Positions 2,254 to 51,687 of a stretch of DNA of 57,694 nt are shown piece after piece; the stretch's first letter is position 1; each line of letters begins with the position of its first letter. The translations under genes and the position numbers were made by a program. This stretch comes from a virus: UHGV virus genome UHGV-0135630; one strand, written 5' to 3'. Below the pieces are notes generated by a model. The model worked only from the letters and a program-made list of their open reading frames with translations. It was not told the DNA's origin and searched no databases.

Positions 2254-2351
2254 CCCCTCTTCTCCCTGCGCGAATGGCTTAGTTCCCTGTTCGCGCAGTG
2301 CTACATTAAACACACTAGTAAATAATTTGTTTTCATAACAAAGGATTAGCC

Positions 2352-4460
2352 ATGTCTAAAAAACGTTCCATCAAAGAGGTTCAGGACTTCCGTGACAGTG
2401 TAAAACGAGTAGTCGCTCTCCTTTCAGGTAAAAACATCCCTGTTGCAGAACGAGGAGACGACGCTTATGTACGCTATAACGATGATGGAGAGCCAATTCT
2501 CGTAAACATCCCATCAATCCCGGATAACGCAACACCGGCATTGATGAATGCTGTGCGCGGATTTCTCGATCATGAGGTTGCTCACATTTTGTTTACCGAT
2601 ATTCGTGTGTCCAACAAAATGAGAGAAAAAGGACGCGTTCCTTCCTGGTCGCTATGGAATGCCTTAGAAGACGTGTTCATCGAGCGAAAAATGGGTCAGG
2701 TCTTTAACGGAACAAGACGTAATCTGATGGCAACTCAGCGCCTTATAATCGAAAAAGTCTTTAAACCAAAGGCTTCAGAGGCTATTGCTTATTGTGGCAA
2801 AGATCAGCGCGCGCTTTTTCTAAACTTCTTTCTCTGTCCGGTTGTAAGAGCCTGGGATGGCCAAGCACCGTTCGTAGATTTCATGGATGAATATTGGCCT
2901 GTCATTGAGAAACCAATTTCATTATTAAAAGAACATGGTATCGATGTGGCCGTGCGTAACATGTCTTGCACCGAGGATTGTGTAAAGGTGGCTGCGACCA
3001 TAGCTAAGATCCTCAAAGACACTGAAAGTGAAAGCAAAGGTAAGGAGTCAGCTCCGGGAAAAACTTCCGATCCTTCAGACGCTGACCAGACGGATGCCTC
3101 TGGAGAAAACAATGAAGACAACGAAGATCATGAGACACCCTCATCGTTAGATAATCACAAATCTATTAAATCAGAGTCACATAGTAAGCACAAACATGAT
3201 AATAACGAAAGTGATGATTCAGATAATCCTGAATCATCAGAAACAATATTCGATGATACAGAAAATGATAAAGCGGTATCAGATTCTGATGCTTCTGATA
3301 ACGCGGCGTCAGAATCATTAACCGCTGACCACGAAAAAAGAAAAACGACAGAAGACGGCCCTTCAGACATTCCAACTCCGTCAAAAATGAGTCTGGAAGA
3401 GGCTTTAGAGGAGTTGGATAGCATGGAAGATGAAGTCGGAGGCATGACAGAAGATGCGCTATCCGAAACGATTAAAAGCGAGTTAACAGAAAGCTCGAAA
3501 AGCGAATACAGGCCATACAATCGCTCATACGACTTCATCGGCTCGATTGATCAGGCAGAAGCCCATATCAAACGGCTTATTAAAACATTCTCCGATATTG
3601 ATTTAGGTGGATATCCAATCAGCCGTTATCGCATCGTTCCTGAAGGCAACCAACTCTTCGACAAATATATTGAAAAGCACCTTTCGTCAGGTGTTTCGTC
3701 GACGCTGGCAAAAGACCTGGAACGTGCAATAGCAAGCAGAAACAGAGTTCAGTTTATACCTGGCCAGCGTCGGGGGCGCATTCATGGTTCAAGTATCTAC
3801 AGATTAACAATGAATGATGATCGCGTGTTTCGTAAAAAAGAAGAATCTAAAGCCGTTAACGCCTGTGTTCAACAAGTGATTGATTTATCGGGTTCAATGA
3901 GTGGCAAAACGATAAAACTAGCTCTTGCAAGTGCATATACCATCGCCGATGCACTTGATCGAATAAATGTTCCCAACATTATCACCGGCTTCACTACATT
4001 TGGCAGTCATATGGCAGCAGGAGAACTTAAGGCTATCAAATATGAGTTCTCTCGCTTTGAATCTTTAATGCTACCTATCATCAAAAATTGGAATGAAAAA
4101 GCAAATTCTCGCGAAGTTCGCTCACGTATGGGGTGCGTAGGCTACACATTCCCACTTCTTAATAACGTGGATGGTGAAAGCATAGCCAGCCTTGCATCGT
4201 TATTTTCCGGTCGCTTGGAGGACAGGAAGATCATGCTTGTTCTGAGCGATGGCGCGCCGTGGGCTGTTGGGAGAGGTTTTGACGCCCATTTGCGTTCGGT
4301 TACGAAGCAAATTGAAACGCAGACTGACATTGATTTGATGGCAATTGGCATCATGACTGATGCACCGGAGAGATTTTACGCAAATCATGCCCTGGTAACT
4401 AGTGTTGATAGTCTTGGTTCATCTGTAGTTACTGAACTATCTCGTATCATTTTGAAGTAA
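2352..4460 (+). CDS. von Willebrand factor A domain protein (CobT-like) with acidic linker
   Basis: 702 aa; MIDAS-like VIDLSGSMSG; long D/E/S-rich low-complexity middle; HEVAH (HExxH-like) near N-terminus. Confidence 0.65.
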   Translation: MSKKRSIKEVQDFRDSVKRVVALLSGKNIPVAERGDDAYVRYNDDGEPILVNIPSIPDNATPALMNAVRGFLDHEVAHILFTDIRVSNKMREKGRVPSWSLWNALEDVFIERKMGQVFNGTRRNLMATQRLIIEKVFKPKASEAIAYCGKDQRALFLNFFLCPVVRAWDGQAPFVDFMDEYWPVIEKPISLLKEHGIDVAVRNMSCTEDCVKVAATIAKILKDTESESKGKESAPGKTSDPSDADQTDASGENNEDNEDHETPSSLDNHKSIKSESHSKHKHDNNESDDSDNPESSETIFDDTENDKAVSDSDASDNAASESLTADHEKRKTTEDGPSDIPTPSKMSLEEALEELDSMEDEVGGMTEDALSETIKSELTESSKSEYRPYNRSYDFIGSIDQAEAHIKRLIKTFSDIDLGGYPISRYRIVPEGNQLFDKYIEKHLSSGVSSTLAKDLERAIASRNRVQFIPGQRRGRIHGSSIYRLTMNDDRVFRKKEESKAVNACVQQVIDLSGSMSGKTIKLALASAYTIADALDRINVPNIITGFTTFGSHMAAGELKAIKYEFSRFESLMLPIIKNWNEKANSREVRSRMGCVGYTFPLLNNVDGESIASLASLFSGRLEDRKIMLVLSDGAPWAVGRGFDAHLRSVTKQIETQTDIDLMAIGIMTDAPERFYANHALVTSVDSLGSSVVTELSRIILK

Positions 4461-4555
4461 TTAAAACAGCCTTAATGATAAGTAACTACTTACCATAGTT
4501 AATGGTATATTTATATAAGAACTTGAACGCTCATTAGAGAACAAAGGAAAAGCGC

Positions 4556-5791
4556 ATGACTACTACTGCACTGCAAAATGATAAAAATCCTTCTGATTAC
4601 CTTGTTTGCAAGTGGTGCGGCAAATCATTTCACTATTTTAAGTCCCATGTAGCCAATGGTAATTGCGAGGGCATTCCTGAGTCAGTAAAAGATGCCGATC
4701 CTGACACCGTACTGAAAATGTACACAACGCAGTTTCCAGATGAACCAACGCTATCGAAAAAGGCACTTGATGCAATTCAAGCTAAACGTGCCGAGCAAAA
4801 AAGCGAAATGGCGAAATCTTCTGGCTTGACCAGTAGCCCAGGCTACACAGGCACAGTTGAGTACAAGACAGATCTGGTCGCAGCTCACGAACTGCTAAAC
4901 GTAACGGTGGAAGAACTCGGAACAAAACGTGGGACGCCGCTCATGGTTAGCGTCAACGTCAATACGCCGTATCCAGAGTTCGTTCCAGAAGTGAAGAAGG
5001 GCTACGTATATGGCGACTTCGAACTGATCAAAGATATTTTCATGATGCTTGAACTTGGCATACCTGGCTATTTGTGGGGTCATGCAGGAACAGGCAAATC
5101 GTCATTGCCTACACAGCTATGTGCTTTGCTCAATCGTCCGTTGATCCGTGCCCAACATACAGCATCAATGGAAGAGGCACATGTTACGGGGCAAATTCTG
5201 GCGCGTGATGGCTCTACGTATTTCGAGCCTGGCTTGCTTGCGCTCGCAATGAAGCATGGCTGGGTTTACCTCGCGGATGAATACGACTTTGCGTTTCCAC
5301 AAATTCTTGGCGTGTATCAGCCAGTGCTGGAAGGTGAGGCGTTGGTCATCAAAGAGGCAAATCCAGAATGGCGTCGCATTACTCCGCATGAACGGTTTGC
5401 TTTCATTGGCACTGGCAACACAAACGGTTCTGGTGATGAAACCGGCTTGTACCAGGGTACAAACATCCAGAACGCCGCGAACTTTTCACGTTTTGGCATC
5501 GTTTCGAATGTGAAATACATGAGCAAAGAGGCAGAGATCAACATGTTGATAAATGCCGGCATCGTGGATGAATACGCTGAAAAGATGGTTAAGTTTGCCG
5601 GTATCGTTCGCGATGGATATGAAGAACACCTTATCAGCCAGCCAATTGGGCCTCGTGAGCTTTTGTTGTCGGCCAAGATTGGAATGATGCGAGGCGACTT
5701 TGTGACAGGTATTGAGCGTTCTTTCATTAACAAACTCCCTTCAGCTTCTGCGCAAGCGGCTCGTGAAGTTGTTCAAAAAATATTTGGTTAA
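4556..5791 (+). CDS. AAA+ ATPase (CobS/MoxR-like)
   Basis: 411 aa; Walker A GHAGTGKSS, Walker B VYLADEYD; Cys/His cluster at N-terminus; directly downstream of the vWA gene. Confidence 0.7.
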   Translation: MTTTALQNDKNPSDYLVCKWCGKSFHYFKSHVANGNCEGIPESVKDADPDTVLKMYTTQFPDEPTLSKKALDAIQAKRAEQKSEMAKSSGLTSSPGYTGTVEYKTDLVAAHELLNVTVEELGTKRGTPLMVSVNVNTPYPEFVPEVKKGYVYGDFELIKDIFMMLELGIPGYLWGHAGTGKSSLPTQLCALLNRPLIRAQHTASMEEAHVTGQILARDGSTYFEPGLLALAMKHGWVYLADEYDFAFPQILGVYQPVLEGEALVIKEANPEWRRITPHERFAFIGTGNTNGSGDETGLYQGTNIQNAANFSRFGIVSNVKYMSKEAEINMLINAGIVDEYAEKMVKFAGIVRDGYEEHLISQPIGPRELLLSAKIGMMRGDFVTGIERSFINKLPSASAQAAREVVQKIFG

Positions 5792-16535: not shown

Positions 16536-16583
16536 CGCAATTATCTTATTAAGAAAACAATTTGTTTAAAAGGATAAGAAAAC

Positions 16584-29256: not shown

Positions 29257-30126
29257 ATGAACTTTACCAAACTGACTGACCACCTGAAACTTGCCACCGA
29301 TCGACTCATTGGATTTAAGCCAGAACCATATGAGTTGCATGAAGGTCATGGTGTAGCTACTGAAAGTATTTACAAGATGGTCGATCAGTTTCATGAACTC
29401 TTCCAGCATCCGAGACGCGTTATGCCGACACCAGAGCTGCTTCGTCTCCGTGCAAGCCTGATTCATGAAGAAGCTGTAGTGGAAGGTATTCCTGCCGCAA
29501 TGAATGGGGATATTGAGCAACTGCTGGATGCAATGGCCGACTTTTTATACGTTGGTGTTGGTACGATGGTCGCCATCAAAGGTGGTATTTCTACCGGCAT
29601 GACCTATTACACGCAGGAACAGAGCATTGATCGCTTTATGCAGACAATTTTTGTGCCCGGTAACACTGTTTTCGATGATATGGCAATGCCATTTCAGGAA
29701 GCTCGTGAGGCGTCATGTATGCTCGAAGAGCTGGCAGATAAACTTGAGAACAAGACTGTTAAGGATTCTGAGCTGATTCAGGAACTGCGCCGTGTCATGA
29801 ACAAAATCTATGTGGCGTGCATGATGACCTATCGACTGGCTGATTTCCTCGGTATCAATGTAGTCGAGCTGGTTGGCGAAATTCATCGGTCTAACATGAC
29901 AAAATTATGGCCTGCTGATGTTGAGGAACGTCGCCAGGCTGTGGCCAACTGCAAATACGACTCTTCAGATCTGGGATTCCGCCATGCTGATGGTACCGAT
30001 AAGATGATCGGTTTTCGAATTTCCGATGGAAAGATTCTGAAGTCTCCAACCTATAGTGATGTCGATTTATCCTCCTTTGTTGAGCAAGCTAAAGCCTCAG
30101 CAATGTACGGAATGATCAAAAAATAA
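29257..30126 (+). CDS. MazG-like nucleoside triphosphate pyrophosphohydrolase (tandem all-alpha domains, putative)
   Basis: 289 aa with two EExxE/D-containing helical repeats; between nrdB and thyA. Confidence 0.5.
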   Translation: MNFTKLTDHLKLATDRLIGFKPEPYELHEGHGVATESIYKMVDQFHELFQHPRRVMPTPELLRLRASLIHEEAVVEGIPAAMNGDIEQLLDAMADFLYVGVGTMVAIKGGISTGMTYYTQEQSIDRFMQTIFVPGNTVFDDMAMPFQEAREASCMLEELADKLENKTVKDSELIQELRRVMNKIYVACMMTYRLADFLGINVVELVGEIHRSNMTKLWPADVEERRQAVANCKYDSSDLGFRHADGTDKMIGFRISDGKILKSPTYSDVDLSSFVEQAKASAMYGMIKK

Positions 30127-42296: not shown

Positions 42297-42409
42297 TAGG
42301 TAAATGCTTACTTAATTTATGTAAGAATGTAGTAATTAAACGATAAGAGAAAAACACATGAACAACCTCCATTCATGCCTGATCAACCTATTCTGATGGT
42401 CACATCCAG

Positions 42410-45158: not shown

Positions 45159-45456
45159 TAACGTCTGTTTTTTAACCCAACACACCCTCAATACTGCAAC
45201 ATCAGTGTCTTGCAACCTAAGATAGTGTCTGTAGGTTCTTCATGCAAGTGCATAACTCAGTGGATAACTCATGAAGGAAAAAGTAGCTTCCGCGCAATTT
45301 AGACCAGACAAGGTCTTCGCAAAAGTCAACGGAAAGAGAAAAATTTGTTAAAAATAACGTTTGTTGTAATTGTATATATTTATGCCTTTCAATAGTTAGC
45401 ATCTTATTAACATCTTTTTTAAGAGACAGAGTTCAAAAATATATAGCTTTAACATA

Positions 45457-45476
45457 TACTGTATGTATATACAGCA
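45457..45476. promoter_or_regulatory. LexA box TACTGTATGTATATACAGCA
   Basis: Near-consensus SOS box (CTGT-N8-ACAG with TA-rich spacer) about 17 bp upstream of the umuD-like ATG. Confidence 0.7.
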
Positions 45477-45492: not shown

Positions 45493-45882
45493 ATGGGCTT
45501 CCCTTCTCCTGCGGCGGATTATGCTGAGAGCCGTATTTCTCTTGATCAGCACATAATTAGACATCCTTCAGCTACCTACTTCATGAGAGCAACTGATAGC
45601 CATCAGCGTGAGGGAATATTGCAGGGTGCATTGCTGGTGGTCGATTCCTCACTTACCCCGGTTGATGGTTCTCTGCTTGTGTGCGCTATGGAGGGGGAAT
45701 ATCGCGTAAAAAGATACCGGAAGTATCCACGTCAGCATCTGGAGGATTTAAGAACCGGTAAGAAGGAAACATTGCCAAAGGATGATGATGGATGCACGGG
45801 CAGCAATGCCGTGTTTGGAGTGATCACTCACATTATCAACGACGCAAGAAGTGGCGAATTTGATGATTGTCCTGTGATGTAG
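45493..45882 (+). CDS. umuD: UmuD-like S24 peptidase (orphan, no umuC partner)
   Basis: 129 aa; GFPSPAADY N-terminus, Ser in ATDSHQ, Lys in EYRVKR, C-terminal FGVITHIIN; LexA box upstream. Confidence 0.7.
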   Translation: MGFPSPAADYAESRISLDQHIIRHPSATYFMRATDSHQREGILQGALLVVDSSLTPVDGSLLVCAMEGEYRVKRYRKYPRQHLEDLRTGKKETLPKDDDGCTGSNAVFGVITHIINDARSGEFDDCPVM

Positions 45883-45892
45883 GAGAGCTGAT

Positions 45893-45917
45893 TAGGCGGT
45901 GCAATGCACCGCCTTTT
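45893..45917. terminator. bidirectional terminator hairpin between umuD-like and apbC
   Basis: aggcggtgcaatgcaccgcctttttat. Confidence 0.5.
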
Positions 45918-45919
45918 TA

Positions 45920-47020
45920 TCACACTGCGCGGAATGCGATTTCGCCAGGTATTACTTCGCCTTGCCAATACATTTGTGCGGCAACGCGATCTGCGAGGTC
46001 ACGGTAAATAGCAGTAAATTCGCTGTCTGGGCGACTAATAACGGTTGGTGTTCCGTTATCCAGATCTTCACGAAGTGAGATATGAAGAGGCATTTGGCCT
46101 AACAACTGCGTGTTGTATTTCTCTGCCAGCTTCTCTGCACCACCGGTGCCAAAAATTGGCTCGTGATGACCGCAGTTACTGCAAATATGCACACTCATGT
46201 TTTCGACGATACCCAGTACCGGCACTTCGACTTTTTCGAACATCACAATGCCTTTCTTCGCATCGATCAGCGCGATATCTTGCGGCGTAGTTACCACCAC
46301 AGCACCCGTTACAGGAATGTTCTGCGCCAGCGTCAACTGAATATCACCAGTGCCAGGCGGCATATCGAGAACGAGATAGTCCAGATCAGGCCACAATGTT
46401 TCCTGCAACATCTGCATCAGCGCCTTGCTAGCCATCGGTCCGCGCCACACCATTGCATTGTCGTCGGTGACCAGATAACCAATAGAGTTGGTTGCCAGGC
46501 CATGAGACATGATAGGTGCCATGTGAGTACCGTCCGGTGAGGTTGGACGTTGGTTTTCCGCGCCCAGCATGGTTGGAATTGATGGCCCGTAGATATCGGC
46601 ATCCAAAATACCAACTTTCGCACCTTCAGCAGCCAACGCCAGTGCCAGGTTTACCGCCGTTGAGGATTTACCCACGCCGCCCTTGCCTGAGCTTACGGCG
46701 ATAATATTCTTAACGCCATTAATGCCTGGTTGGTTTTTGACGCGCTTAAGCGTGGCAATGTTGTACGACAGCTTCCAGTCAATAGCCTTTGCGCCAGTGA
46801 TACGGAGCAGATCACCACTACATTGCTCTTTCAGGTCTTCAAAAGGCTTATTCCACACAAAAGGCATGATCAGTTCGACATGCAGTGTGTCATCCATCAA
46901 CGCAACATGGTGTAACGCTTTAAGCGTTGTCAGGTTGTGTTTCAGGGTTGGGTGCTGAAAATTAGCCAGCGTACCGGCTACCATTGCTCTCAGGGCATCC
47001 GGCGATTTGGACTCGCTCAT
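45920..47020 (-). CDS. apbC: iron-sulfur cluster carrier ATPase ApbC/Mrp
   Basis: 366 aa; Walker A SGKGGVGKSS; CxxC motif; collinear with E. coli Mrp as recalled. Confidence 0.9.
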   Translation of the reverse strand: MSESKSPDALRAMVAGTLANFQHPTLKHNLTTLKALHHVALMDDTLHVELIMPFVWNKPFEDLKEQCSGDLLRITGAKAIDWKLSYNIATLKRVKNQPGINGVKNIIAVSSGKGGVGKSSTAVNLALALAAEGAKVGILDADIYGPSIPTMLGAENQRPTSPDGTHMAPIMSHGLATNSIGYLVTDDNAMVWRGPMASKALMQMLQETLWPDLDYLVLDMPPGTGDIQLTLAQNIPVTGAVVVTTPQDIALIDAKKGIVMFEKVEVPVLGIVENMSVHICSNCGHHEPIFGTGGAEKLAEKYNTQLLGQMPLHISLREDLDNGTPTVISRPDSEFTAIYRDLADRVAAQMYWQGEVIPGEIAFRAV

Positions 47021-47177
47021 CCCGTCTCCTTTATTTTAATTTGCGCAATTGTCGCCTTGTAGTGTACTCCAGCTACGACATTTAATCATTTATGAGAAAT
47101 GCTGTTATCACATGGCAGACATAAGACCATTTTGTTACTATCAAGCCCCTTTTCACTACAAAGAAGTAATGCCTACT

Positions 47178-49211
47178 ATGACCCAAGTCGCGAAGAAAAT
47201 TCTGGTGACGTGCGCACTGCCGTACGCTAACGGCTCAATCCACCTCGGCCATATGCTGGAGCACATCCAGGCTGATGTCTGGGTTCGTTACCAGCGAATG
47301 CGCGGCCACGAGGTTAATTTCATCTGTGCCGACGATGCCCACGGTACGCCGATCATGCTGAAAGCCCAGCAGCTTGGTATTACCCCGGAGCAGATGATTG
47401 GCGAAATGAGTCAGGAGCATCAGACTGATTTCGCAGGCTTTAATATCAGCTACGACAACTATCACTCGACGCACAGCGAAGAGAACCGTCAGTTGTCTGA
47501 GCTTATCTATACTCGCCTGAAAGAGAACGGTTTTATTAAAAACCGCACCATCTCTCAGTTGTACGACCCGGAAAAAGGTATGTTCCTGCCGGATCGTTTT
47601 GTGAAAGGCACCTGCCCGAAATGTAAAGCGCCAGATCAATACGGCGATAACTGTGAAGTCTGCGGCGCGACCTACAGCCCGACTGAACTGATTGAACCGA
47701 AATCGGTGGTTTCTGGCGCTACGCCGGTAATGCGTGATTCTGAACACTTCTTCTTTGATCTGCCCTCTTTCAGCGAAATGTTGCAGGCATGGACCCGCAG
47801 CGGTGCGTTGCAGGAGCAGGTGGCAAACAAAATGCAGGAGTGGTTTGAATCCGGCTTGCAACAGTGGGATATCTCCCGCGATGCGCCTTACTTCGGTTTT
47901 GAAATTCCGAACGCGCCGGGTAAATATTTCTACGTCTGGCTGGACGCGCCGATTGGCTACATGGGTTCCTTCAAGAATCTGTGCGACAAGCGCGGCGACA
48001 CTACCAGCTTCGATGAATACTGGAAGAAAGACTCTACCGCTGAGCTGTACCACTTCATCGGTAAAGATATCGTTTACTTCCACAGCCTGTTCTGGCCAGC
48101 AATGCTGGAAGGCAGCAACTTCCGCAAGCCGACTAACCTGTTTGTTCATGGCTATGTGACAGTGAACGGCGCGAAGATGTCCAAGTCTCGTGGCACCTTC
48201 ATTAAGGCCAGCACCTGGCTGAATCATTTTGACGCTGACAGCCTGCGTTACTACTACACTGCGAAACTCTCTTCGCGTATTGATGATATCGACCTGAATC
48301 TGGAAGATTTCGTTCAGCGCGTAAATGCCGATATCGTCAACAAAGTAGTGAACCTGGCCTCCCGTAACGCTGGCTTTATCAACAAGCGTTTTGACGGCGT
48401 GTTGGCAAGCGAACTGGCTGCCCCTGAACTGTACAAAACCTTTACTGATGCCGCTGAAGTTATTGGCGAAGCGTGGGAAAGCCGCGAATTTGGTAAAGCG
48501 ATCCGTGAAATCATGGCGCTGGCTGATCTGGCTAACCGCTATGTCGATGAACAGGCTCCGTGGGTGGTGGCGAAGCAGGAAGGACGCGATGCCGATCTGC
48601 AGGCGATTTGCTCTATGGGCATTAACCTGTTCCGCGTGCTGATGACTTACCTGAAACCGGTACTGCCGAAACTGACAGAACGTGCGGAAGCATTCCTGAA
48701 TACGGAACTGACCTGGGATGGCATCCAGCAACCGCTGTTGGGCCACAAAGTGAATCCGTTCAAGGCACTGTATAACCGTATCGATATGAAACAGGTGGAA
48801 GCACTGGTGGAAGCATCCAAAGAAGAAGTGAAAGCAACTGCCGCGCCAGTTACTGGCCCGCTGGCTGATGATCCGATTCAGGAAACCATCACCTTTGACG
48901 ACTTCGCCAAAGTTGACCTGCGCGTGGCGCTGATTGAAAACGCAGAGTTTGTTGAGGGTTCTGACAAGCTGCTGCGCCTGACGCTGGATCTCGGTGGCGA
49001 AAAACGCAATGTCTTCTCCGGCATTCGTTCTGCTTACCCAGCCCCACAGGCACTGATTGGTCGTCACACCATTATGGTGGCTAACCTGGCTCCGCGTAAA
49101 ATGCGCTTCGGTATCTCCGAAGGCATGGTGATGGCTGCTGGCCCTGGCGGGAAAGATATCTTCCTGTTAAGCCCGGATGCTGGTGCTAAACCTGGCCACC
49201 AGGTTAAGTAA
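47178..49211 (+). CDS. metG: methionyl-tRNA synthetase
   Basis: Begins [26 protein letters not shown] (HIGH-type motif), KMSKS present, C-terminal tRNA-binding domain; start moved to the internal Met of the 720 aa ORF. Confidence 0.95.
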
Positions 49212-49233
49212 TTAAACAACCTCTGTTCGCAAT

Positions 49234-49257
49234 GCCCGGCAACACGCTGGGCATTTT
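49234..49257 (+). terminator. rho-independent terminator after metG
   Basis: gcccggcaacacgctgggc + ATTTT. Confidence 0.55.
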
Positions 49258-49370
49258 CATATAGACACAATCCCTCCTGATTTACACATGCCCTAAAACA
49301 ATTTGTTTTCTGTGTTTTGTTATTTGAGATAATAAAGCACATAAGAAAACAAGTTGTTTAGGAGATGAAG

Positions 49371-49613
49371 ATGTTTGGAACAGCAAAAGAAATCATCGAG
49401 AAATTGAAAAACTATCCAGAAGACGAACCCTTACTCATGGTTATGTGGCACAAAGAAGATATTGCTGAAGTAAGGACAGATCTCACTGATGAACAATGCG
49501 TACAGGTGATGCAAAAAATCAGACAATGCCATAACGCTGATGTCGGCGTTAATTGGGAGGTTATATCCACTACGGCGAATGAGTTGTTTCCAAACGGGGA
49601 GAGGGGATGTTAA
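49371..49613 (+). CDS. hypothetical protein
   Basis: 80 aa; motif A upstream. Confidence 0.4.
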   Translation: MFGTAKEIIEKLKNYPEDEPLLMVMWHKEDIAEVRTDLTDEQCVQVMQKIRQCHNADVGVNWEVISTTANELFPNGERGC

Positions 49614-49906
49614 ATATTACTCAATCCTACCAGGTGGCATTGATCAGTTCATCTCATACATCAGAGGAAGATGCTCGCCGATTCATGATCGCAAGCAATG
49701 AGCTGGATTGGATTTCACAAATTGAGTACGGTTGCATAGTTCACGCCGGGTTACAGGATGATGACTGGAAAGATAACTTGCGTCGATATGGTATATCCGA
49801 GGGCGCGATTGCGAACATTCAGAAGGTACTTGATGCAGGCTTTGACTCTGTACATTTTGATTGTGGCGCACCGGTCGTTGAAGGGCTTGAGTGCTGGCAA
49901 TGGTAA
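49607..49906 (+). CDS. hypothetical protein
   Basis: 99 aa overlapping previous stop. Confidence 0.4.
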   Translation: MLNITQSYQVALISSSHTSEEDARRFMIASNELDWISQIEYGCIVHAGLQDDDWKDNLRRYGISEGAIANIQKVLDAGFDSVHFDCGAPVVEGLECWQW

Positions 49907-49942: not shown

Positions 49943-50128
49943 ATGCTTAAAGAAGACTCATATCTACTAAAGGCGCTTGAAATGCGTGGCGTTGAACCTA
50001 CAGTGAAAAACGCTCACGATTTCTACCTTCAGTTTTCGCCAGAGCTGAAACAGCTCATAAATAAATATGGAGTGAATGACTCCAGCGTCAAAGCCATGAT
50101 AGATGATGAATTAGACCATCTCATCTAA
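49943..50128 (+). CDS. hypothetical protein
   Basis: 61 aa. Confidence 0.35.
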   Translation: MLKEDSYLLKALEMRGVEPTVKNAHDFYLQFSPELKQLINKYGVNDSSVKAMIDDELDHLI

Positions 50129-50239
50129 CCAAACCGTTGATAATGGCGGTCATAATTTGATTTTTTTCTATAAGAATCCGTTGATCGCCACTACTCCCCT
50201 TCCATACCTGCAATCACATCCTTAAATATCAATAGGTTA

Positions 50240-51000
50240 TAGTTGTTTATACAAACAAGAAAACAACTGAATAACAGATCAACGAAACGTCAACGCTTTC
50301 ACCCGATTTGGTCTAAAAAATTGACGTTTTCACACATCACTGCTTATACCCGTAATTCTACGCAGCAGACAGCGCCACAGCGTCCAATTTTCACCACAGA
50401 CGACCCAACACACTACCAACAAAAACACACGCTCAAAATCGTTCCCGTTGCGTTACATAACCATATAAACAACTTATTTTCAGGCATAACAAAACAACTA
50501 AATAACACATATTCCATTACCAAAAACAACCAACCTCTTTATGGCAGGCTACCGAAAAGACCCACCTCTTCTTCCCAGGCTACCGGACAACCAACCTAAC
50601 TTTCACAGGCAATCCGAAAACATTCATACGCGCGATACCCACGACACGCCATTACCCAAACAGCGAAGAAACACCAGAATCACTGAAACCCCAACGAAGC
50701 CTGTAACCGCAAGGTTTCTCTCAATCCCAAAAGACACGAAACATAACAATCACGGGAAACGCCATTACCCAATACACGAATAACTACAAAAGCCTTTCAC
50801 ACACTCCAGACAAACAACTCAAACACAATAACGAAAGGAATCGCCCACCTGCCATTACTCCATACACGGAGAAGAACAATCACCAAAACGACGAGAACAC
50901 CCCATAGAAGAACCACCGCAAAACGAACGAAACCACATACACCGACAGAGAGAACAACACACCCAATTCACCAACAGAAATAGTCGCCGCATAGAACGTT
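50240..51000. repeat. A+C-rich, G-poor noncoding region with dispersed GCCATTACCCAA-like and CAGGCTACCG-like repeats
   Basis: Strong strand compositional skew over about 760 bp; ORFs here look spurious. Confidence 0.5.
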
Positions 51001-51189
51001 CTGGTAGGAGTGAGCATTAACGCCTATAGAGAGGTTGAAACAGACAAAACACGAAGAAAACACAACATGTATAGCGAACAAGACAGGTATGTATAAGTGG
51101 GGAGGGAAGGAGGGGTGCCGCCTCCTTTTTCGTATTTATTCAACTCCTGATTTTATCCCCCGTAACACCCCTACGGTCAGCCTTCGGTC

Positions 51190-51335
51190 CATACAGGGAA
51201 AAGGCTGCATCCCGCTACAGAAACGGCTGGGTTGCCTTCGGGGAACGGCTGGAGGTTTTCAGGGAAACGGTCGAGTTGCCTGTGTGGATTTCGGGAAAAG
51301 GCTCGATGCCGGTTCAGGAACGGCGGCGTACCGGT
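51190..51335. repeat. array of about 6 GGGAAACGGCTG-like repeats at roughly 20-30 bp spacing
   Basis: cagggaaaaggctg, agaaacggctgg, ggaacggctgg, gggaaacggtcg, gggaaaaggctcg, ggaacggcggcg. Confidence 0.5.
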
Positions 51336-51687
51336 ATAGCGAGAGGGAGAGTTGCGGCTACCCACCTGTAATGTGCGGGAAGAAGAGAGGCGCTCACGTG
51401 CAGGCGAACTTACTTACCGCTGGATTCCCTCTGAATGCCCAACTACAGCGTAATTGTGCCAGACAGTCAGCGGGTCACAATCGATTTCAGTAGGTTTTCG
51501 GGGAGAGGATTATTCTGCCCACCAGCCATCTTCGGCCACTAAATCAGAATAATGTAAAAAGTGTACTCGATACTGAACCTGAAAACTCACTGCCAAAACA
51601 ACATTCACCGGAATAAAATCCTTTTTAGCCTGTGCGTTATTGCGATAATAACACCAACGAGAAAACAAGTTGTTTAAGGATTGCTTT

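Follow-up and report, generated by a model that had tools for sequence, protein, structure and literature searches.

Organization of the apbC-metG block

The stretch of DNA analyzed here (hereafter the window) is the virus genome UHGV-0135630, 57,694 nucleotides (nt) long. Its gene content and nearest relatives (pF404-2, Cyrano/pLF82 and pECOH89) identify it as that half of an SSU5/pHCM2-type phage-plasmid, from the Escherichia lineage, in which the replication and metabolism genes lie. Within the backbone of this element lies a block of two divergently oriented genes of chromosomal type, apbC (mrp), coding for an iron-sulfur (Fe-S) cluster carrier, and metG, coding for methionyl-tRNA synthetase (MetRS), closed at both ends by hairpins (Table 1). 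The initial annotation, made from the sequence alone, recognized here a host housekeeping block and offered three readings of it: an element sitting on both sides of a chromosomal locus, an element that has captured chromosomal DNA, or a cointegrate or misassembly. The evidence presented below leaves only the second of these.

The ApbC protein matches the entry 8zkc of PDB ('Iron-sulfur cluster carrier protein') with E = 2e-236, contains, like the ApbC/Mrp/NBP35 carriers, a domain of the NUBPL/ParA type with a deviant Walker A motif (GKGGVGKS, residues 112–119) and the cluster-ligating CXXC motif (CSNC, residues 280–283), and is 94.8% identical to its K-12 counterpart. Its identity to enterobacterial ApbC (94–95%), together with a ratio of nonsynonymous to synonymous substitution rates (dN/dS) of ~0.01–0.02, suggests that the protein binds and transfers Fe-S clusters. 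Seven positions of ApbC are specific to phage-plasmids, including the N-terminus, which is 3 residues shorter.

MetRS is also full-length; the mechanical list shows metG as a 720-residue open reading frame only because it is extended upstream to a TTG start. The protein contains the motifs HLGH (residues 22–25) and KMSKS (333–337) and a four-cysteine zinc knuckle (146–162), the cysteines of which are the same as in E. coli MetRS (1F4L), with one motif residue differing (A vs. S). Over residues 1–551 it is near-identical to that crystal structure, and it fits the bacterial class I long form, since the catalytic, zinc-knuckle and anticodon-binding parts as well as the C-terminal Trbp111-like dimerization and tRNA-binding part are all present. 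The identity is 98.4% to the K-12 enzyme and 98.4–99.4% to chromosomal Escherichia MetRS, and no position was found that is common to all 7 phage-plasmid copies and absent from 78 chromosomal copies. Aminoacylation of tRNA-Met and tRNA-fMet is the activity expected from the K-12 identity and from this lack of phage-plasmid-specific residues. The description of both products as E. coli-like was thus borne out, with Pfam domains matched at full length. No tRNA genes were detected in the window, and no Rfam families between 42 and 57.7 kb; the cassette is therefore without an accompanying tRNA-Met.

Table 1. Features of the apbC-metG block and of its immediate surroundings, in window coordinates.
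Feature	Position	Strand	Evidence or remark
Cargo cassette: terminator, apbC, divergent intergenic region, metG, terminator	45883-49295		pTB212 boundaries, GC step
apbC/mrp, Fe-S cluster carrier P-loop ATPase, 366 aa	45920-47020	-	Pfam PF10609, E = 2e-102 (residues 103-346)
Divergent apbC/metG intergenic region, 157 nt, ancestral long form	47021-47177	.	alignment
metG, full-length methionyl-tRNA synthetase, 677 aa	47178-49211	+	Pfam tRNA-synt_1g, E = 5e-166 (8-397); Anticodon_3 (418-540); tRNA_bind (581-674)
9-bp GC-rich hairpin between convergent humD and apbC	45894-45914	.	-18.6 kcal/mol, z = -5.3; terminator scan
Terminator-like hairpin 3' of metG, 10-bp stem AAUGCCCGGC/GCUGGGCAUU with U-rich tail	49231-49259 (hairpin 49231-49255)	+	-20.1 kcal/mol, z = -4.7
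LexA (SOS) box TACTGTATGTATATACAGCA, CTGT-N8-ACAG	45457-45476	+	read from sequence; overlaps promoter-like site of humD-like gene
S24 peptidase gene, HumD/UmuD'-like, last backbone gene left of slot	45493-45882	+	Pfam Peptidase_S24, E = 3e-9; S24 peptidase/HumD in related records
Two AAACAA-N-TTGTTT palindromes (49296-49308, 49347-49359) around extended -10-like TGAGATAAT (49325-49333)	49296-49360	+	upstream of DUF1380-family gene
DUF1380-family gene, first backbone gene right of slot	49365-49613	+	annotation of pF404-2, SSU5_104
DUF5983 gene	49607-49906	+	Pfam DUF5983, E = 2e-13

A cargo slot in a phage-plasmid backbone

The closest record to the window is the circular plasmid pF404-2, which is 99.6% identical over 44–51 kb and 99.9% over the block; a single 30.7-kb alignment at 99.5% (window 19911–50567) runs across both block junctions. 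The Escherichia phages Cyrano (pLF82), CMS-2020a and PhiR41_1 match the part between 36 and 57.7 kb at 94–96.5% over ~90% of its length (96.5% for Cyrano and CMS-2020a), and Salmonella phage SSU5 gives a patchy match only. The rest of the window encodes repA, dnaE, nrdAB, thyA, dfrA51, rnhA, a dam-type methylase, an integrase and grxA, so that the collinear backbone of SSU5/pHCM2-type elements (repA, dnaE, nrdAB, thyA, dfr, rnhA, dam) is present, and this gene list agrees with the gene set of the pECOH89/pLF82/pHCM2 family (PMC3999498). Cyrano and PhiR41_1 were deposited as phages, and the window itself covers the replication and metabolism half only; Cyrano is maintained at ~5.5 copies per cell, forms virions and has a lytic cycle that is induced by genotoxic stress (ciprofloxacin; PMC9928086).

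The limits of the cassette are set by pTB212 (NZ_CP033252.1), a member of the same family without apbC-metG, in which backbone homology stops at 45882, the stop codon of the humD-like gene, and restarts at 49296. The cassette is therefore placed at 45883–49295, in an intergenic cargo slot. In pTB212 the slot is filled by a 0.9-kb stretch with a reverse-oriented DUF4145 gene and its own terminator (positions 3683–4615 of locus L091). In SSU5 homology restarts at 49287, and the corresponding position is taken by an HD-domain gene, an LprI-family gene and ydfZ. The higher GC content claimed for the block is confirmed within these limits, with 51.1% in 45883–49295; the 10 kb left of the block have 45.0% and the DNA right of it 42.9%.

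Homology to the K-12 chromosome is limited to 45924–47010 (apbC, 82.8%) and 47127–49212 (metG with 51 nt upstream, 93.7%), and chromosomal homology ends within ~4 nt of both stop codons. The chromosomal neighbors, yehE and the DUF4132 gene, and the chromosomal terminators are absent beside the block. The hairpin 3' of metG is specific to phage-plasmids and unlike the chromosomal metG terminators, as the alignment of downstream sequences revealed, and the hairpin at the other end looks like the terminator of humD, with a T-run on the plus strand only. Neither direct repeats, inverted repeats nor insertion sequence (IS) ends were found at the 45883 and 49295 junctions, and no transposase adjoins the block in the window or in pF404-2. 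Since the junctions are free of direct or inverted repeats and of IS ends, the capture probably occurred by illegitimate recombination.

Transposition and site-specific capture were considered and dropped, as junction repeats, IS ends and an att signature are all missing; likewise, the block shows none of the marks of a transposon- or integron-type cassette (terminal inverted repeats, target-site duplication, attC, an adjacent transposase).

Element motifs on both flanks

According to the initial annotation, both flanks carry the same element-specific motifs. This proved right for the palindrome AAACAA-N-TTGTTT, of which 13 sites with at most one mismatch were found in the window vs. 0.49 expected; they lie on both flanks, with 0 sites inside the block or its intergenic region. 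Exact copies occur in 10/10 phage or phage-plasmid loci vs. 0/81 chromosomal loci (~730 kb in total), and SSU5 contains 8 of them in 20.8 kb. The palindrome is therefore a family-specific element motif, and the flanks are not ordinary chromosomal sequence. The second motif, AGGAAAAACACATG, is also enriched (8 sites vs. 0.68 expected), but all its sites lie left of the block, the nearest at 42347, so for this motif the claim was only partly right. The palindrome is probably the operator of a family-specific regulator. The pair of palindromes with the -10-like sequence between them, situated directly right of the cassette, is kept in pTB212 and SSU5, and this segment could be an operator-controlled promoter.

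Distribution among phage-plasmids and chromosomes

The block is present in 208 PLSDB records, of which 191 are from Escherichia (including E. fergusonii, E. albertii and E. marmotae) and 6 from Shigella. About 195 of the records, Escherichia and Shigella phage-plasmids, carry it at ≥94% identity, and nearly all of these are non-mobilizable replicons of 100–120 kb. The site is identical in ~200 complete phage-plasmids of 100–115 kb and in virion-forming phages, and phage-plasmids 4–5% apart in sequence have identical junctions. In complete E. coli genomes of RefSeq there are 224 plasmid-borne places with the block, and a separate chromosomal apbC-metG copy, ~90% identical over the whole block, was found in 5426/5426 of these genomes. 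The backbone marker nrdA at ≥95% identity gives 172 PLSDB records, and 363 relatives of the Klebsiella/Enterobacter type (~77% nrdA identity), as well as SSU5, are without the block. On these counts the block is nearly a core feature in the Escherichia branch, and the other branches of the family lack it. Both coding sequences are listed intact in 35/35 phage-plasmid rows sampled. Such lineage-wide distribution rules out a misassembly as well as an element that flanks a chromosomal locus, and it agrees with the reading of the initial annotation in which chromosomal DNA was captured.

The slot and its left neighborhood vary among relatives, where holE-like theta genes, type I restriction-modification genes and der were found. 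Several individual cases were observed in this region. A copy of der, an essential ribosome-biogenesis GTPase gene, stands directly beside apbC in 3 phage-plasmids (2 from E. marmotae and 1 from E. coli); its identity to E. coli chromosomes is ~91%, and it occupies positions 2279–3751 of locus L085 from the E. marmotae phage-plasmid NZ_CP146383.1. In NZ_CP070074.1 and NZ_CP079892.1 a gene for DNA polymerase III theta (holE/hot-like) is located left of the humD-like gene, and to this gene the E. fergusonii plasmid adds a type I restriction-modification system, situated in the variable region on that side of the slot.

Some other records with these genes deserve mention. Pseudomonas phage Y5, Acinetobacter phage MD-2021a and the Salmonella S.Kent fragments, which also have mrp-metG, look like host DNA in phage-labelled records. 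The record CP170191.1, labelled Enterobacter hormaechei B56, contains apbC-metG without differences from a K-12-like chromosome and groups with E. coli in the trees of both genes; it is probably mislabelled or actually an E. coli genome.

Two adjacent genes with different evolutionary histories

Trees (neighbor-joining, 200 bootstraps) and dN/dS were obtained from 7 phage-plasmid copies and 20 chromosomal copies, and the whole chromosomal set comprised 81 loci, that is K-12 and the best 80 of 484 relatives from a scan in which each of 185,579 species was represented by a single genome. The two genes of the block gave different pictures. The apbC DNA is 77–83% identical to every chromosome compared (82–83% for those of Escherichia and Citrobacter), and at the protein level ApbC is 93–95% identical to Escherichia, Citrobacter and S. 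diarizonae and 89–92% to more distant genera. Synonymous divergence (dS) of apbC to every chromosome is 1.4–2.5 and thus saturated. In the apbC tree the phage-plasmid copies form a clade with 100% support, the chromosomal Escherichia copies form another that excludes them (100%), and the two are sister groups (96%). The GC content at third codon positions (GC3) of apbC is 0.53 vs. 0.61 in Escherichia chromosomes. No donor of apbC was found in the 185,579-species scan by ApbC, where the best match reached at most 95% for protein and at most 83% for DNA.

The intergenic region, 157 nt vs. 131 in K-12, keeps an ancestral form: according to the alignment, the long form contains a segment that is common to Citrobacter and Salmonella and was lost in E. 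coli, E. ruysiae and E. albertii. Only its last 51 nt upstream of metG (47127–47177) align to Escherichia chromosomes, at 88–92%.

The metG gene, on the other hand, is 96.2% identical in DNA to E. ruysiae, 94.5% to E. whittamii, 93.8% to K-12 and 92.8% to E. albertii, and its dS to Escherichia is 0.17–0.39. A chromosomal Escherichia clade excluding the phage-plasmid copies receives 0% support in the metG tree, and a clade of phage-plasmid copies with E. ruysiae 86%; GC3 is unchanged (0.61 vs. 0.625 in chromosomes). The window allele is a mosaic: two tracts, one of 365 and one of 245 nt, match the E. ruysiae chromosome without a difference (permutation P = 5e-5), a 200-nt tract is identical to E. 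whittamii (permutation P = 8.5e-4), and a 670-nt tract is common with another phage-plasmid. These tracts show that metG recombines with host chromosomes, exchange in either direction being conceivable. Within the phage-plasmid family both genes are alike in diversity (dS 0.13–0.22 for apbC, 0.12–0.29 for metG), so they mutate at similar rates on the element and owe their difference to the stem branch.

In the apbC of Cyrano an 80-nt tract (within gene nt ~225–450) is identical to K-12 despite the 18% overall divergence, and the identity of Cyrano apbC to the window allele dips locally in this region, which suggests a rare small conversion patch from the chromosome.

Among phage-plasmid copies, leaving aside the near-identical pF404-2, dN/dS is 0.007–0.019 for apbC and 0.005–0.012 for metG, and ~0.02 on the long apbC stem. 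Since apbC (82% identity) is too diverged for upkeep by conversion, its low dN/dS reflects selection on the element, and at least apbC is under direct purifying selection there.

Expression of the two genes in the relative Cyrano

Expression could be followed in the published transcriptomes of LF82/Cyrano (PMC9928086, Table 1 and S1 Table), Cyrano being 95.6–96.1% identical to the window in apbC and metG. The apbC homologue CYRAN_99 reached 92 normalized counts, or 9x the prophage background, and the authors count it among the morons, a class for which they set the cut-off at 5x background; it carries there the wrong names 'septum site-determining protein' and MinD (PMC9928086). The homologue of metG, CYRAN_100, falls below the cut-off (PMC9928086). 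Cyrano also expresses a KacT-type acetyltransferase toxin-antitoxin pair as morons (PMC9928086).

Origin of the cassette and its possible role

Taken together, the block is best explained overall as a host-derived apbC-metG cargo cassette in an SSU5/pHCM2-type phage-plasmid, a reading to which we give a probability of ~0.85; in the structural and evolutionary part of the account our confidence is high. On the simplest account, the divergent chromosomal pair apbC-metG was captured once, long ago, as one piece trimmed near both stop codons. Subsequently metG was overwritten patchwise and repeatedly by homologous recombination with resident Escherichia chromosomes, and apbC diverged past efficient recombination. 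The cassette presumably behaves as a moron-like unit with its own divergent promoter region and terminators, outside the palindrome-operator circuit of the element; in its composition, closing hairpins and variable occupancy it resembles the morons. In a lysogen ApbC could serve as a second, element-borne Fe-S carrier, and MetRS as a spare canonical enzyme. As the expression of metG in the lysogen is low, any benefit of MetRS probably arises under conditions that were not sampled, such as lytic growth or stress of methionine supply or translation. A second Fe-S carrier and a spare MetRS would fit well among the genes by which the element provides for itself (nrdAB, thyA, dfrA51, dnaE, rnhA, grxA). 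The specific physiological role, namely extra dosage or a reserve for the charging of Met-tRNA and the delivery of Fe-S clusters, possibly above all in lytic growth, is proposed only tentatively, and we regard it as doubtful.

Several observations weigh against this account or parts of it. No match to the sigma-70 consensus was found by a consensus scan of the intergenic region (47021–47177), which speaks against a moron with its own promoter; of the intact divergent promoters and terminators stated in the initial annotation, the hairpins at both ends stand, the promoters having gone undetected. From the outgroups the phage-plasmid apbC is ~0.05 further away (Kimura two-parameter distance) than the E. 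coli gene; therefore part of the long apbC branch is acceleration and compositional shift and has no meaning as age, although even allowing for acceleration the split falls at or before the crown Escherichia radiation. The low dN/dS of metG may have been imported with converted chromosomal sequence. IS elements are present inside the block in at least some phage-plasmids. Finally, CYRAN_100 had ~16 counts vs. a background of ~10 (~1.6x), and still lower values in medium-only and macrophage samples (PMC9928086). A metG gene near-silent in the lysogen, whether in LB, in cell-culture medium or inside macrophages, argues against a constitutive dosage role of MetRS.

Of the alternatives, an assembly chimera or plasmid-chromosome cointegrate would account for the GC step at both edges and for genes that are typical chromosomal housekeeping genes, yet the same junctions recur in independently assembled circular plasmids and in phage genomes, Cyrano among them, the window aligns in one piece to pF404-2, and apbC, only ~82% identical to any chromosome, could not have come from host reads; its probability is practically nil. 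Just as negligible is a chromosomal metG locus with integrated copies or parts of the element on either side. Such a locus would explain why element motifs stand on both flanks, but neither yehE nor the DUF4132 gene is there, chromosomal homology goes no further than the stop codons, the flanks are a single-copy collinear phage-plasmid backbone, all 5426 E. coli genomes have a separate chromosomal copy, and 0 of ~200 relatives have the flanks joined to chromosomal genes. A recent pick-up from the present host, by aberrant excision or in a transduction-like event and without long residence, is suggested by the 93–96% identity of metG to Escherichia chromosomes and by its tracts of 100% identity. 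We consider it very improbable in view of apbC, which is monophyletic, saturated in dS to the 81 chromosomal copies and AT-shifted in GC3, and in view of the junctions shared by diverged phage-plasmids, the best E. coli chromosome reaching just ~90% over the block. That the block is a neutral passenger, in which the conservation of metG merely results from chromosomal gene conversion, would agree with the mosaic tracts, with metG transcription near background in Cyrano lysogens and with the IS insertions. This remains unlikely, for apbC keeps its low dN/dS, on the stem as well, at 82% identity and is transcribed at 9x background, and the block is retained, intact in all rows sampled, by essentially all Escherichia-type members while neighboring cargo turns over.

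Other explanations concern the function of the captured synthetase rather than its origin. Second synthetase copies on mobile elements often serve inhibitor resistance or self-immunity, and a variant MetRS of this kind (cf. ileS2/mupA or the agrocin type) was therefore weighed. It was rejected, as no position is specific to the phage-plasmid copies, the protein is nearly that of the host and its catalytic core nearly that of the crystallized enzyme; what probability it retains is very small. A MetRS that buffers the cell against toxins or defense systems depleting Met-tRNA(fMet), for instance GNAT toxins of the AtaT/KacT type, finds some encouragement in the toxin-antitoxin pair of Cyrano and in the sub-lineage that captured der, a translation-related essential gene, in the same slot; but these points are circumstantial, the toxin gene lies outside the window and metG is weak in lysogens, and this role seems quite unlikely. 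A wider proposal, something of a long shot, joins MetRS, the Fe-S carrier and, in the sub-lineage, Der into a translation-maintenance module that would act when host supply fails, as in lytic takeover or under toxins and defense systems aimed at Met-tRNA(fMet), including the KacT-type toxin of the family, while metG, still able to recombine with chromosomes, would have its alleles shuttled from one Escherichia species to another; an E. coli plasmid whose metG has tracts of E. ruysiae and of E. whittamii fits the shuttling of alleles.

Neighboring features of the backbone

The humD-like gene left of the slot is preceded by a perfect SOS box, which overlaps the promoter-like hexamers TTCAAA-17-TATACT that a consensus scan found at 45432–45460. 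Its Cyrano homologue CYRAN_98 rises in macrophages from log2 ~7 to ~12, ~30-fold (PMC9928086).

The palindromes of the window are located at 16555, 27993, 38224, 38953, 49296, 49347, 51663, 52147, 53050 and 53814, among others, and those at 49347 and 51663 stand 15–25 nt upstream of a start codon. Further to the right, at 50140–51130, there is a stretch of ~950 nt that is nearly free of G on the plus strand (the 50001–51000 bin has a GC skew of -0.37 and an AT skew of +0.32). It is unannotated in pF404-2 and ends in a strong hairpin with a T-run, GGAGGGGTGCCGCCTCCTTTTT, near 51110–51131; this stretch may represent either a long non-coding transcript depleted of G or a structural region of the DNA. 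At the position matching it Cyrano has the 'coiled-coil' open reading frame CYRAN_102, listed at 6x background. Just past this terminator, at 51160–51350, five loose units of the type GGGAAA(A/C)GGC follow at a spacing of ~30–40 nt, which resemble iterons or protein-binding repeats and were unreported by Tandem Repeats Finder.

The dihydrofolate reductase of the backbone (window ~29600–30100; positions 93278–93754 of the pF404-2 record) is labelled by NCBI 'trimethoprim-resistant dihydrofolate reductase DfrA51', which is the name of a resistance gene on a phage nucleotide-metabolism gene.

Significance

At the level of sequence and annotation the feature is already known, as metG and apbC stand in ~200 plasmid records of RefSeq and PLSDB and MetRS in the records of Cyrano and PhiR41_1. 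Discussion of the metG-apbC cargo was not found in the searchable literature on phage-plasmids, a search outside which the study on the diversity of SSU5-type plasmid prophages remained (Gilcrease and Casjens, 2018). What appeared as an anomaly, a housekeeping island in mobile DNA, is thus resolved into stable, lineage-wide cargo of a well-known family of phage-plasmids, in which an essential translation gene and an Fe-S carrier gene have been kept intact on a temperate element for roughly as long as the genus Escherichia exists. The two adjacent captured genes have met opposite fates, apbC becoming isolated and drifting to the composition of the element and metG, within recombination range, being homogenized again and again with the chromosomes; the block therefore offers a natural illustration of the way in which sequence divergence controls exchange between element and chromosome. 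There is also a practical caution, since some typing and phylogenetic schemes rely on metG, a gene of which ~4% of complete E. coli genomes have a second, plasmid-borne allele.

Comparison with known systems

Phage morons and host-derived auxiliary genes, such as humD and hot of P1 or nrd, td and frd of T4, are among the nearest parallels, for they are likewise self-contained, foreign in composition, placed between backbone operons and provided with their own terminators. As with morons, the slot holds varying cargo among relatives (pTB212, SSU5), and the apbC homologue of Cyrano is listed among them. Unlike the morons with virulence or immunity genes, however, the cassette consists of a core housekeeping pair in its chromosomal divergent order, of which metG is barely expressed in the lysogen. 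The chromosomal apbC(mrp)-metG locus of Enterobacteriaceae has the same genes in the same divergent orientation, a homologous metG 5' region and full-length products; it differs from the cassette, which has an ApbC with a shorter N-terminus and 6 phage-plasmid-specific substitutions, a 157-nt intergenic region, terminators of its own at both ends and phage-plasmid flanks.

Virus-borne MetRS has precedents in giant viruses and huge phages, i.e., in mimivirus, in Microcystis phage MaAM05 (metG) and in 630-kb 'uncultured phage' records, and tblastn found MetRS in MaAM05 and in megaphage records at 24–30% identity. Those synthetases are deeply diverged and belong to very large lytic genomes with tRNAs and other translation genes, whereas the MetRS of the cassette is 98–99% identical to that of the host, recombines with it and is carried by a temperate phage-plasmid of 106 kb, with no tRNA genes in the window. 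The plasmid-borne resistance synthetases (ileS2/mupA and the immunity LeuRS of agrocin 84) are likewise extrachromosomal second copies beside a chromosomal one, but the MetRS of the cassette is without variant residues for altered binding of an inhibitor. F-prime plasmids and specialized transducing phages also bring chromosomal DNA onto a mobile replicon, where it is able to recombine with the resident copy; in contrast to them, the apbC-metG cassette is fixed across a phage-plasmid lineage, precisely trimmed, ancient as far as apbC is concerned, and joined to its element without att or IS junctions.

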